Virus record (IMG/VR): IMGVR_UViG_2695420514_000021
Length of the DNA: 5,675 bases
Origin: a virus
Taxonomy: Duplodnaviria; Heunggongvirae; Uroviricota; Caudoviricetes
Reading direction: 5' to 3' (one strand)
This document shows, in pieces, positions 2,952 through 5,675 of the stretch. Numbering within the stretch: the stretch's first letter is position 1; each line of letters begins with the position of its first letter. A model generated the notes under the pieces. The model did no database searches and had not been told where the DNA came from. It saw only the letters and a list, made by a program, of their open reading frames with translations. The translations under genes and the position numbers were made by a program.

Positions 2952-3719
2952 ATGAATACTCTTACCAAAGAATGGTTACAGAACACGATTACCAGCATTG
3001 AGTCAGCACGGGATGAAATACCGTTCGGACTCGATGAAGATCAAAACAACATGCTTACCGCATTAAAAATTGCACTGGCATCACTGGCAGCAGTATCAGA
3101 TGAACGAGCAGCCTATGAATTATTTATGGAGAAGCGTTTCGGGGAATCTGTAGATCGTCGCAGAGCAAAAAATGGCGATTGCGAATACATGGCATGGGAT
3201 ATGGCGCTTGGCTGGATTATCTGGTGTCACCGCACCGCCATGCTTCAGGGTAACCAACCTGTAAGCCAAACTTACAAGTTTCCACAAACGCAGTTTGAAG
3301 AGGTTGCTGACCTCTACGAAATGCAATTTGATGACGGACGCACTTGTGCCTTTCATAGTGATGTGCAAAAGGCTGCACAATGGCTTCAGGCATGCGACGG
3401 AAACAGGGTTCAGGAATACGTGAAGTTGGAACGATTGCAGAACGCGCTGTCTGATAACTCTCCAGTAACTCCGGATGGTTGGGTTATGGTTCCGAAGAAA
3501 CTAACCGCTGAGAACGGCGCTAAAGGTGTGCTATCCGGTGAATTTTCAGAATCTACGTTTATAAGCTGCCCGGAATGTTTTGGCGATGATGATTGCGATA
3601 CCTGTGACGGGAGCGGACGTATTGAAATTAAAGTGCCAGTCACGTGGTCGACCATAAAATCTATCTGGGATAAAGGTATCGAGTATTTTGCAGCAAAACC
3701 ATCACAAGAGGTGAAGTGA
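2952..3719 (+). CDS. Hypothetical phage protein, 255 aa, with a C-terminal DnaJ-type zinc-ribbon-like motif
   Basis: Long ORF with ATG at 2952, 2 nt after the upstream stop. The motif CPECFGDDDCDTCDGSG at nt 3567-3617 contains a CxxCxGxG unit plus a second CxxC. The RBS is weak, so the exact start is uncertain. Confidence 0.75.
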   Translation: MNTLTKEWLQNTITSIESARDEIPFGLDEDQNNMLTALKIALASLAAVSDERAAYELFMEKRFGESVDRRRAKNGDCEYMAWDMALGWIIWCHRTAMLQGNQPVSQTYKFPQTQFEEVADLYEMQFDDGRTCAFHSDVQKAAQWLQACDGNRVQEYVKLERLQNALSDNSPVTPDGWVMVPKKLTAENGAKGVLSGEFSESTFISCPECFGDDDCDTCDGSGRIEIKVPVTWSTIKSIWDKGIEYFAAKPSQEVK

Positions 3720-4291
3720 TGAACAACTTAATGATCGACCTTGAGACGATGGGGAAAAATAAGGATGCACCGATCGTTTCCATTGGCGCGGTGTTCTTCA
3801 CTCCAGAAACCGGAGACATCGGACAAGAATTCTATGCGGTTGTCAGCCTAGACAGTGCTATGAAGCAAGGAGCTACACCTGACGGCGATACCATCCTGTG
3901 GTGGTTGAAACAAAGCCCTGAAGCGCGAGCTGCAATCTGTATTGATGATACTTTGTCGATCAGCGATGCTCTCTCAGAACTAAACCATTTCATTAACCGG
4001 CACGCAGACAATACGAAATATTTAAAAGTCTGGGGTAACGGGGCCACCTTCGACAACGTAATTTTACGTGGAGCTTATGAGCGAGCAGGACAAATCTGCC
4101 CGTGGGCGTACTGGAATGACCACGATGTACGCACGATCGTTACGCTTGGGCGTTCCATCGGATTCGACCCCAAAATGGACATGCCTTTCGATGGCGAACG
4201 GCACAACGCCCTGGCTGATGCCCGTCATCAGGCAAAATATGTTTCCGCTATCTGGCAGAAATTAATTCCTGCCACCAGCACAGAATTATGA
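3719..4291 (+). CDS. Prophage 3'-5' exonuclease of the DEDDh (DnaQ-like) superfamily, 190 aa
   Basis: ATG at 3719 (the GTG at 3716 overlaps the upstream TGA), with GAGGTG at 3706-3711 as RBS. The translation shows Exo I (MIDLETMG), Exo II (WGNGATFDNVIL) and Exo III (HNALADARH, HxxxxD) motifs in the expected order. This small exonuclease is a conserved resident next to xis/int in lambdoid prophages; the truncated ypdJ of K-12 is the equivalent remnant, as far as I recall. Confidence 0.85.
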   Translation: MNNLMIDLETMGKNKDAPIVSIGAVFFTPETGDIGQEFYAVVSLDSAMKQGATPDGDTILWWLKQSPEARAAICIDDTLSISDALSELNHFINRHADNTKYLKVWGNGATFDNVILRGAYERAGQICPWAYWNDHDVRTIVTLGRSIGFDPKMDMPFDGERHNALADARHQAKYVSAIWQKLIPATSTEL

Positions 4292-4327
4292 TTTTCCCGG
4301 GTGCAGCCGGTTTTGATGGAGAAAATT

Positions 4328-4597
4328 ATGAACACCTTGTTTTTACTGATGGCTGAATTCAATACCCCAAACATTGAACTCTCAGCAGTTAGTCAAAAAT
4401 ACTTTGGTATGAGTCCAGCCACAGCAGAAGCAAAAGCAAACGCTTGTAAGTTGCCTGTACCTACATATCGCATCGGTACATCACAAAAAGCAAAACGCTG
4501 CATCAACATTCAGGATCTTGCGGAATATATTGACAAAAGACGGGAAGAAGGGCGAGCTGAGTGGGAAAAAGTCAGAACGGAAAAAAAATATAACTAA
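4328..4597 (+). CDS. Excisionase-like DNA-binding protein (PrtN/AlpA-type), 89 aa
   Basis: ATG at 4328 with GGAG at 4317-4320. The N-terminus MNTLFLLMAEF and the ...SQKAKRCINIQDLAEYIDKRREEG segment resemble the PrtN family as I recall it. It is the last gene of the + strand operon, the canonical xis position. The in-frame ATG at 4301 lacks an RBS. Confidence 0.75.
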   Translation: MNTLFLLMAEFNTPNIELSAVSQKYFGMSPATAEAKANACKLPVPTYRIGTSQKAKRCINIQDLAEYIDKRREEGRAEWEKVRTEKKYN

Positions 4598-4610
4598 ACT
4601 AAAACTATGG

Positions 4611-4642
4611 ATAACCCGTATATGTACGGGTTATTTTTCTTT
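4611..4642. terminator. Rho-independent terminator between convergent genes, probably bidirectional
   Basis: Stem AACCCGTA (4613-4620), loop TATG, TACGGGTT (4625-4632), followed on the + strand by ATTTTTCTTTAT. On the - strand the T-tract is poorer and starts a few nt after the stem. The TAA stop of the - strand gene (4631-4633) lies inside the stem. Confidence 0.7.
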
Positions 4643-5179
4643 ATCACTATCTTTTCTTGATTTGAACAATCCACTAACAACGAAACCAACCAAACCAACA
4701 ATACTAATTGTACTTGTACCTAGTAATGCAACGATCGCTTCAACTGGAGGCTTTCCTTCATGTGCAATAAGAAACGATGTAAACATTGCGACAACGAATA
4801 AGCACCAACACGACATAAACCAAACCGTGAATGATGCCATTTTTGTCCGGAGCTCATTGTCTATTTCTTTACCAGTTGCGTCAGCTATCTTATCCCGTAC
4901 TTGTGATTTGAGCATATCAAGCTGAGCTTGAAGACTGTCCATTCTGTTCTGCTGCATAAACTCATGCAATGCACCAGTATTAGAACCAAACTCTTCTTCC
5001 TCCAGAATAGCCTTATTTTCTGAAGAAGAATCATCATCGCGTTCATGATTAGACGGCTCAAATGCGGATTCAAAAGCCTGCTCTTGACTGTCAGTAGAGT
5101 TTAAGGATGCTTCAGAGCGACCATTTTCAACACCTGCGGCCGCTCCGATCAGTTTATAGATATCTGAATTATGAGACAT
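4631..5179 (-). CDS. Hypothetical membrane protein, 182 aa: acidic Ser/Glu/Asp-rich N-terminal domain plus two predicted C-terminal TM helices; candidate toxin/effector partner of the upstream Panacea-like gene
   Basis: ATG at 5179-5177 (- strand) preceded by AGGGATGAC, stop TAA at 4633-4631. The N-terminal roughly 110 aa are hydrophilic and acidic (ERDDDSSSENKAILEEEEFG) with a likely helical stretch (MDSLQAQLDMLKSQVRDKIADATG). Two hydrophobic stretches follow (FTVWFMSCWCLFVVAMFTSFLIA and AIVALLGTSTISIVGLVGFVVSGLF, about nt 4664-4831). No family recognised. Confidence 0.72.
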   Translation of the reverse strand: MSHNSDIYKLIGAAAGVENGRSEASLNSTDSQEQAFESAFEPSNHERDDDSSSENKAILEEEEFGSNTGALHEFMQQNRMDSLQAQLDMLKSQVRDKIADATGKEIDNELRTKMASFTVWFMSCWCLFVVAMFTSFLIAHEGKPPVEAIVALLGTSTISIVGLVGFVVSGLFKSRKDSDKEK

Positions 5180-5201
5180 GTCATCCCTGAATATTACTTT
5201 T

Positions 5202-5675
5202 TCAGAGGCCCTGACATTGCTGTCGGTTATTCAATAAATCATGATAATAAGCCTTGATCGCATCATTTGAGATGATCGACGAGCCAATACCATTATAAGC
5301 TTGTGACCAAGGCGTACCTGGCATATGAGTTAGAGTTGATAACTCAATTCCATTTTTCGAGCCGTAAAACTTATAAACAGCCCCGATAATGCTCTCTGCT
5401 TGCGGATCCATAGTAACGATGCCACCAAAAGGAGCTACTGCTACATTCGTAACAGGTTTATTCCCATAGTCTTTGAAAGCATCGTACATTCCAGGAATAA
5501 CTGGACCGTACTTCCACGCGGAGACACATTCATTGAGCAAAGGCTTACCTGTTAATGCTAAATAGTAACCATGGGCAATATAAGTAAGCTTCTGCAGTTG
5601 CATGTGGGTCAGAGGATTATGATGTTGGTTTCCCAACGTTATGAATTTATTGGCTATTTGTACCGGACTGTACAT
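5202..5675 (-). CDS. Panacea-domain (DUF4065; COG3600/GepA, SocA-like) protein, 157 aa; putative antitoxin or adaptor
   Basis: The ATG is the last three nt of the window (5675-5673, - strand), stop TGA at 5204-5202. The N-terminus MYSPVQIANKFI and the core LQKLTYIAHGYYLALTGKPLLNECVSAWKYGPVIPGMYDAFKDYG (about nt 5484-5600) match the Panacea/DUF4065 pattern as I recall it. The ORF could extend beyond the window edge, since no upstream stop or RBS is visible. Confidence 0.75.
   Translation of the reverse strand: MYSPVQIANKFITLGNQHHNPLTHMQLQKLTYIAHGYYLALTGKPLLNECVSAWKYGPVIPGMYDAFKDYGNKPVTNVAVAPFGGIVTMDPQAESIIGAVYKFYGSKNGIELSTLTHMPGTPWSQAYNGIGSSIISNDAIKAYYHDLLNNRQQCQGL

Follow-up and report, generated by a model that had tools for sequence, protein, structure and literature searches.

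A prophage-borne panA-panT operon in Escherichia coli: identity of the PanT membrane toxin, strict linkage to its Panacea antitoxin and probable LexA control

Introduction

Nine PanAT toxin-antitoxin (TA) pairs have been validated experimentally (Kurata et al. 2022, PNAS 119:e2102212119, PMC8832971), including that of E. coli STEC O31, composed of the antitoxin WP_000287252.1 and the toxin WP_000019185.1; the latter protein is annotated in E. coli strain STEC1588. The mode of action of the STEC O31 pair is given as 'Membrane' in Table 1 of that paper, the supplement of which assigns the toxin to cluster T3 and reports the gene order A|T with a spacing of 22 nt (PMC8832971). Like HokB and CCCP, PanT(Esc. 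col.) upon induction inhibited the incorporation of methionine, uridine and thymidine without distinction, so that transcription, translation and replication were all halted together; it also caused strong depolarization, measured with DiSC3(5), and increased permeability to SYTOX Green, which the authors read as the formation of large pores (PMC8832971). Co-expression of PanA with PanT(Esc. col.) rescued growth, while a physical PanA:PanT complex was obtained by pull-down for five other pairs rather than for the E. coli pair (PMC8832971).

A compositionally similar membrane PanT has been studied in Bartonella, in which Panacea touches the unstructured N-region of the toxin together with a short helix preceding the transmembrane (TM) segment, on the basis of an AlphaFold2 model of the complex and the PanA mutants Y56A and H120E (PMC10440598). 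The PanT of Bartonella apis/choladocola (T12 or node D11, with a stand-alone PanA) forms a cluster that its authors keep separate from T3, leaving open the homology between the two.

Beyond Panacea systems, one of the closest comparisons is with RmrT, the toxin of RosmerTA from Gordonia phage Kita, since it too belongs to a phage-borne type II TA system, has a C-terminal membrane region and both depolarizes and permeabilizes; its anti-phage activity has been demonstrated. However, RmrT is paired with an unrelated antitoxin of the ImmA-type/HTH kind instead of Panacea, and we detected no sequence relationship between RmrT and PanT. TisB, DinQ and HokE, small SOS-induced toxins of E. coli that belong to type I TA systems, act in the inner membrane by dissipating its potential, and their promoters are under the control of LexA, a feature they may share with panAT, which has LexA-type boxes (see below). 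These toxins have 20-50 residues, a single TM helix and antisense RNAs as antitoxins, whereas PanT, with 182 residues and two TM helices, is controlled by a protein and resembles none of them in sequence.

Here we compare with these systems a stretch of 5,675 nt from a virus of the Caudoviricetes (IMG/VR record IMGVR_UViG_2695420514_000021), hereafter called the window. We conclude, with a probability of about 0.9, that its panT is the toxin gene of a type II panA-panT operon, carried as an accessory cassette at the att-end of a lambdoid E. coli prophage integrated at dusA, and that the product is a pore-forming protein neutralized by PanA.

Identity of the toxin-antitoxin pair

The gene of interest is an open reading frame (ORF) at 4631..5179 on the minus strand, with an ATG start and 182 codons for amino acids. 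Its product is identical to WP_000019185.1 in 177 of 182 residues (BLASTP E 2e-136), the substitutions relative to the latter being E61A, V130A, A131G, T134V and S178G. The neighboring gene upstream on the same strand is panA (5202..5675), the ATG of which forms the last triplet of the window; it encodes a stand-alone Panacea-domain (PF13274/DUF4065) antitoxin of 157 residues (PF13274 SocA_Panacea, E 5.9e-18), identical to WP_000287252.1 in 157/157 positions. This gene is the decisive clue that was overlooked by the first-pass annotation, which took the panT ORF on its own. The spacer between the two genes (5180..5201, minus strand) carries a Shine-Dalgarno-like GGGA 6-9 nt ahead of the panT ATG and measures 22 nt, exactly as listed for STEC O31, a coincidence that we count toward the identity of the two systems. 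With an identical PanA, a PanT that is 97% identical, the same gene order and the same flanking genes, the window pair and STEC O31 PanAT are the same system, the differences being the five substitutions in PanT and the context in which the locus was classified (see below).

The ORF at 4631-5179 is therefore the published PanT(Esc. col.) toxin of cluster T3, with which it shares, besides homology to WP_000019185.1, the negatively charged N-terminal part and the two hydrophobic blocks described in the next section. Although it had been considered the most novel-looking protein in the window, it is already known, and the GenBank record of phage PhiR47_1 labels genes that are 98.1% identical as 'PanT toxin' and 'PanA antitoxin'. 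Validation and naming of both proteins date from 2022, which leaves the locus little value as a discovery. The parallel claim that PanT has no recognizable family holds for Pfam, NCBIfam, PADLOC and PDB sequences, in which we found nothing significant, but fails with respect to PanT cluster T3 and to phrog_13343, a family of 'unknown function' that matches the protein end to end (1e-112) and alone covers it, no family model being present in Pfam, NCBIfam or PADLOC. The defense-system models of PADLOC-DB 2.0 gave only chance-level matches with PanT (E 0.02-0.03) and include none for the panAT pair. (Matches to 7tm_6, E 0.046, CARF, 0.031, exosortase Y, 0.062, and lamin, 0.089, were likewise at chance level and were dismissed as noise).

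PanT is a 'hypothetical protein' in the RefSeq annotation of all the complete E. coli genomes that we inspected. One example is strain MB06101, the locus of which is 100% identical in DNA and carries the antitoxin as WP_000287252.1 and the toxin as WP_059274466.1. Owing to this annotation gap, made up of the RefSeq label and the lack of a model in Pfam, NCBIfam or PADLOC, pipelines and readers will go on calling PanT novel. What the present analysis may add for those working on PanAT is the strict linkage to Panacea, the near-invariance of the second TM helix and the probable control by LexA.

At its 3' end, panT meets the convergent gene of the xis/PrtN family (4301-4597, plus strand) in a hairpin at 4609..4636 that is predicted to terminate transcription of both genes, as detected by a terminator scan on an identical locus (L002 6010-6037). 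Its RNA fold has an energy of -12.7 kcal/mol (z = -3.75) and its stem contains the stop codon of panT (4631-4633, minus strand). A mechanical ORF on the opposite strand (4518-4925, plus) overlaps panT and crosses this terminator. The G+C content is 0.39-0.41 over the panAT cassette (window 4251-5500) as compared with 0.44-0.53 over most of the remaining window, in agreement with a separate acquisition of this accessory element.

Architecture and family of PanT

The general plan of the protein had been proposed from its sequence as an acidic soluble part followed by a membrane hairpin and a basic tail, and this plan withstands closer analysis. Residues 1-112 contain 24 D/E against 10 K/R, with a net charge of -14 and a pI of 4.4. 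Two hydrophobic blocks, at residues 114-140 and 145-172, are separated by the predicted turn HEGKPPVE when Kyte-Doolittle hydropathy is computed in 19-residue windows with a threshold of >1.6, and two such blocks arise in only 2/2000 shuffles of PanT. The C-terminal FKSRKDSDKEK has a net charge of +2. An AlphaFold2 model built with 23 homologues has a low mean pLDDT of 58 overall and of 73-85 over the hairpin, which is helical as anticipated: helices span residues 68-139 and 146-178, the turn lies at 140-145 and residues 16-56 are disordered. The one element of the plan that did not survive is the probable amphipathic helix, since the top hydrophobic moment within residues 1-112 (0.37) is reached by 1569 of 2000 shuffles; the segment holding it is predicted to be a helix but not a notably amphipathic one.

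Along the minus strand, the protein can be divided as follows. Residues 1-67 (4979..5179) form a variable, acidic and mostly disordered N-region, with a short helix at 4-14, a charge of -12 over residues 1-70 and pLDDT below 50 at 16-56. Residues 68-113 (4841..4978) are modeled as a cytoplasmic helix that ends in the conserved juxtamembrane motif G103-x-x-I-D-N-x-L-R111. TM helix 1 is assigned by hydropathy to residues 114-139 (4763..4840) and carries the pattern TFxFMxxWCxFVA, and a short turn, HEGKPPV (residues 140-146, 4742..4762), non-helical in the model, leads to TM helix 2 (residues 147-172, 4664..4741), which is rich in Gly, Ser and Thr and nearly invariant. The basic tail KSRKDSDKEK (residues 173-182, 4634..4663) completes the protein. 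From the positive-inside rule we infer that both ends are cytoplasmic and the HEGKPPV turn periplasmic; the AlphaFold2 single-chain model is silent on oligomers, so that pore architecture, like topology, is a matter of deduction. The richness of TM2 in small residues, among them the invariant glycines G162, G165 and G170, would fit helix-helix packing in an oligomer.

Conservation is unevenly distributed along the sequence. The acidic N-terminal part is the least conserved region in our alignments, varying in both length and sequence, while G103, I106, D107, N108, L110 and R111 are invariant in the 23 homologues. At 30% overall identity, the juxtamembrane motif, the TM1 pattern and above all TM2 (ALLGTSTISIVGLVGFVVSGLFK) are invariant or nearly so, with ALLGTSTISIVGLVGFVVSGLF almost unchanged; at about 20% identity TM2 remains the best-conserved block and is still recognizable. 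Because the conserved core is confined to the juxtamembrane helix and the hairpin whereas the N-part is variable, the former two would constitute the toxic module. By analogy with Bartonella PanT, the juxtamembrane helix is also the likely site of contact with PanA (PMC10440598).

A word-indexed search retrieved 67 relatives of PanT, none of which has a Pfam domain; those with a named source are all from Enterobacterales. A profile search run exhaustively over 1.84 billion representatives gave 339 matches with E <= 1e-3, of which 42 had E <= 1e-10 and 15 had E <= 1e-30; most of the distant matches have 110-150 residues and cover profile positions of about 70-178 alone. In all the relatives that we sampled (11/11, ranging from 66% identity to an HMM E of 3e-6) the toxin gene is directly preceded, on its own strand, by a PF13274 gene, also when the locus is outside phages and beside IS elements. 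The PanT family therefore appears to be dedicated to Panacea antitoxins.

Genomic context and distribution

Outside the two-gene cassette, the window covers the early-left region of a lambdoid prophage, with genes for DUF2303/YfdQ, an HD hydrolase, DUF551, Ead/Ea22, an Rv2179c-like 3'-5' exonuclease and the PrtN-family excisionase, and the panAT cassette is convergent to this operon. In E. coli the cassette is flanked by the excisionase gene on one side and the prophage end on the other (window 4301-5675), where it abuts a duplicated 5' fragment of dusA of 105 nt (L002 7381-7485); in the linear phage record the integrase gene is located at the opposite end. The cassette is present in 79 of 5426 complete E. 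coli genomes, in single copy and always on the chromosome, as well as in three phage records, namely PhiR47_1, 1720a-02 and the Stx2k-converting phiSTEC1575-Stx2k. The panAT locus is plainly prophage- and phage-borne, despite the 'NotPhage' flag that the supplement of Kurata et al. attaches to the STEC O31 locus (PMC8832971).

P2-like prophages host three of the distant relatives, in the interval that separates gpA, with or without dinI, from the portal gene Q; genes for AIPR, reverse transcriptase or DUF4145 are their neighbors there. The gpA-gpQ interval of P2 is a reservoir of anti-phage systems (Rousset et al. 2022, PMC9122126), and this location of the distant relatives therefore favors a role in phage exclusion. 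In the literature searched, we found neither a published defense or stabilization phenotype for the E. coli pair nor published anti-phage activity of Panacea systems in P2 hotspots.

A further ORF of the early-left operon, at 2952-3719 on the plus strand, encodes 255 residues without a Pfam match. Like most genes of this operon, it overlaps at its start with the stop region of the ORF before it. The C-terminal part of its product has a cysteine cluster, CPECFGDDDCDTCDGSG, that resembles a CxxCxGxG zinc-finger repeat.

Promoter region and LexA boxes

Since the regulatory region of panA lies outside the window, we took it from the 100%-identical locus L002, in which position 7076 corresponds to window position 5675. 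Just before panA there is a strong Shine-Dalgarno sequence, AGGAGG, and the promoter together with its boxes spans L002 7094-7261 (minus strand), which puts it 17-185 nt before the panA ATG. The promoter is a perfect sigma-70 consensus, TTGACA-16-TATAAT, about 158 nt upstream of that ATG. At about +11 it is followed by a box of LexA type, ACCTGTGTATATGTACAGTC, which has the form CTGT-N8-ACAG and matches the consensus in 15/20 positions; two more LexA-type boxes, CTG-N10-CAG, match in 14/20 positions each. In the 13-kb locus, the sole other sites of such quality are the two boxes of lexA itself, which act as a positive control, and three LexA-type sites occurred in 0/20000 shuffles of the 324-nt region upstream of panA. 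By its sequence, therefore, this operon has the CTGT-N8-ACAG box near the promoter that is expected of a candidate member of the LexA regulon.

An inverted repeat, ATAACAGTGAT(G/T)ATACTGTTT, is also present about 25 nt upstream of the Shine-Dalgarno sequence of panA (L002 7108-7128, minus strand) and is kept in both E. coli and Enterobacter (L030 about 2455-2475); it could be an operator or a hairpin of the 5'-UTR.

The LexA-type elements recur among relatives in various arrangements. In an Enterobacter locus with a PanT 66% identical, the promoter and the first box are kept in the midst of surrounding bases that have diverged, while a Klebsiella relative lacks a box upstream of panA and has its boxes before dinI, about 430 nt ahead of panA. 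In the P2-like loci a LexA box stands before a small ORF (62-66 residues) that precedes panA; dinI comes after the small ORF in three of the four sampled phage lineages, and in three of the four lineages a second LexA box overlaps the first in the style of colicin operators. The boxes and dinI of the P2-like loci suggest a recurrent link between the PanT family and the SOS response.

A consensus promoter followed by LexA boxes lies upstream of panA, which makes it probable that LexA represses panAT(Esc. col.) and that SOS induces it. LexA and SOS are not mentioned by Kurata et al. (PMC8832971); we found no earlier mention of such control of panAT, nor any paper on LexA regulation of a DUF4065/Panacea pair in the literature searched.

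Proposed mechanism and biological role

The published data on toxicity, rescue, depolarization and SYTOX Green permeability were obtained with an identical PanA and a 97%-identical PanT; of the five residues that set the window allele apart from the latter, three are in TM1. For the published allele the early guess of a membrane-depolarizing toxin is borne out by experiment (PMC8832971), and we propose that the window pair works as follows. PanA, which consists only of the Panacea domain in 157 residues, would be translated first from the shared mRNA. PanT would be made in the cytoplasm and its C-terminal helical hairpin would then enter the inner membrane, where copies of the protein would probably assemble through the Gly/Ser/Thr-rich TM2 into large pores. 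The membrane potential would collapse through such pores, which would also admit small molecules, and transcription, translation and replication would come to a stop together. PanA would bind PanT directly, before or instead of pore assembly, most likely at the N-region and the juxtamembrane helix. The operon as a whole would be under probable LexA repression and be turned on by DNA damage, and the benefit for the phage would most likely be the exclusion of other phages by abortive infection, the retention of the prophage, or both.

Taking these elements together, we tentatively put forward, at somewhat less than even odds, that PanAT is not constitutive but a LexA-repressed and SOS-induced pore-former of the att side, a counterpart of TisB/IstR with a protein antitoxin, the use of which would be to exclude phages or to time the induction of the prophage. 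If this were true, DNA damage or an SOS-triggering phage would raise the transcription of panAT and the balance between PanA and PanT would decide whether depolarization follows; the carriers would be lambdoid prophages integrating at dusA, including Stx2k-converting ones. An SOS-controlled promoter would also provide a testable handle on the trigger and the biological role of a Panacea system.

With regard to role only, the cassette could instead be a pure addiction module that stabilizes the prophage by post-segregational killing, with no part in phage defense. This possibility agrees with the position of the pair, in the classic type II TA arrangement, at the margin of a mobile element, as well as with the absence of a PADLOC defense model and of a defense phenotype in the literature searched. 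However, the distant homologues lie in the anti-phage hotspot of P2 (PMC9122126), membrane-depolarizing TA toxins such as RmrT defend against phages and a promoter repressed by LexA, as proposed here, fits constitutive addiction poorly. We regard pure addiction as a less likely account of the role, though far from a negligible one.

Allelic variation and other explanations

Among the ten E. coli and phage loci that we compared, the PanA protein is unchanged in all but one, with up to 10 nt differences between genes, whereas PanT shows up to 14 amino acid changes for 33 nt differences, mostly in the acidic N-region and TM1. No substitution was found in TM2 across these loci. The PanT of APEC O78 has P144A without the duplication next described; that of strain ET120 has P144A together with a three-residue duplication, GLV, within TM2, which may have inactivated the toxin given that this helix is otherwise invariant. 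The overall pattern agrees with an antitoxin under tight constraint and with a toxin that, away from its core, accepts or even explores variation.

The same pattern bears on the question of whether the window allele has decayed into a non-toxic form, leaving the cassette a relic. In favor of decay, PanT does gather amino acid changes between strains while PanA does not, and ET120 has its insertion in TM2. Yet the window allele has an intact frame with unchanged TM2 and juxtamembrane motif, its exact sequence is present on 436 contigs and the strict conservation of PanA is what would be expected if the toxin were still dangerous; decay is consequently very unlikely.

PanA might also be thought to act as SocA does in a SocAB-like type VI TA system, that is as an adaptor passing PanT to ClpXP for degradation, since the Pfam family is named after SocA and PanA matches the SocA_antitoxin model of NCBIfam with E 1e-27. 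Neutralization by PanA was found to dispense with both ClpXP and Lon (Kurata et al., PMC8832971), and the match to the SocA equivalog (NCBIfam NF047745) reaches 97 bits against a cut-off of 190. PanT, moreover, is a membrane protein unrelated to SocB, which makes adaptor-mediated degradation a highly improbable alternative to direct binding by PanA.

Least credible is the idea, raised as a holin-like guess in the first-pass annotation, that the prophage uses PanT as a holin-like or lysis-timing protein and not as a TA toxin: PanT's small size, two TM helices, charged C-terminal tail, pores upon expression and phage-borne gene, the probable SOS induction of which would coincide with that of the prophage, do recall holins, but there is no holin match in Pfam or PHROGs, the gene lies without a lysis cassette between xis and the att site at the prophage end, convergent to the early-left operon, the coupling to Panacea in the relatives sampled extends to non-phage loci beside IS elements, and an acidic N-terminal domain of 112 residues is atypical of holins.
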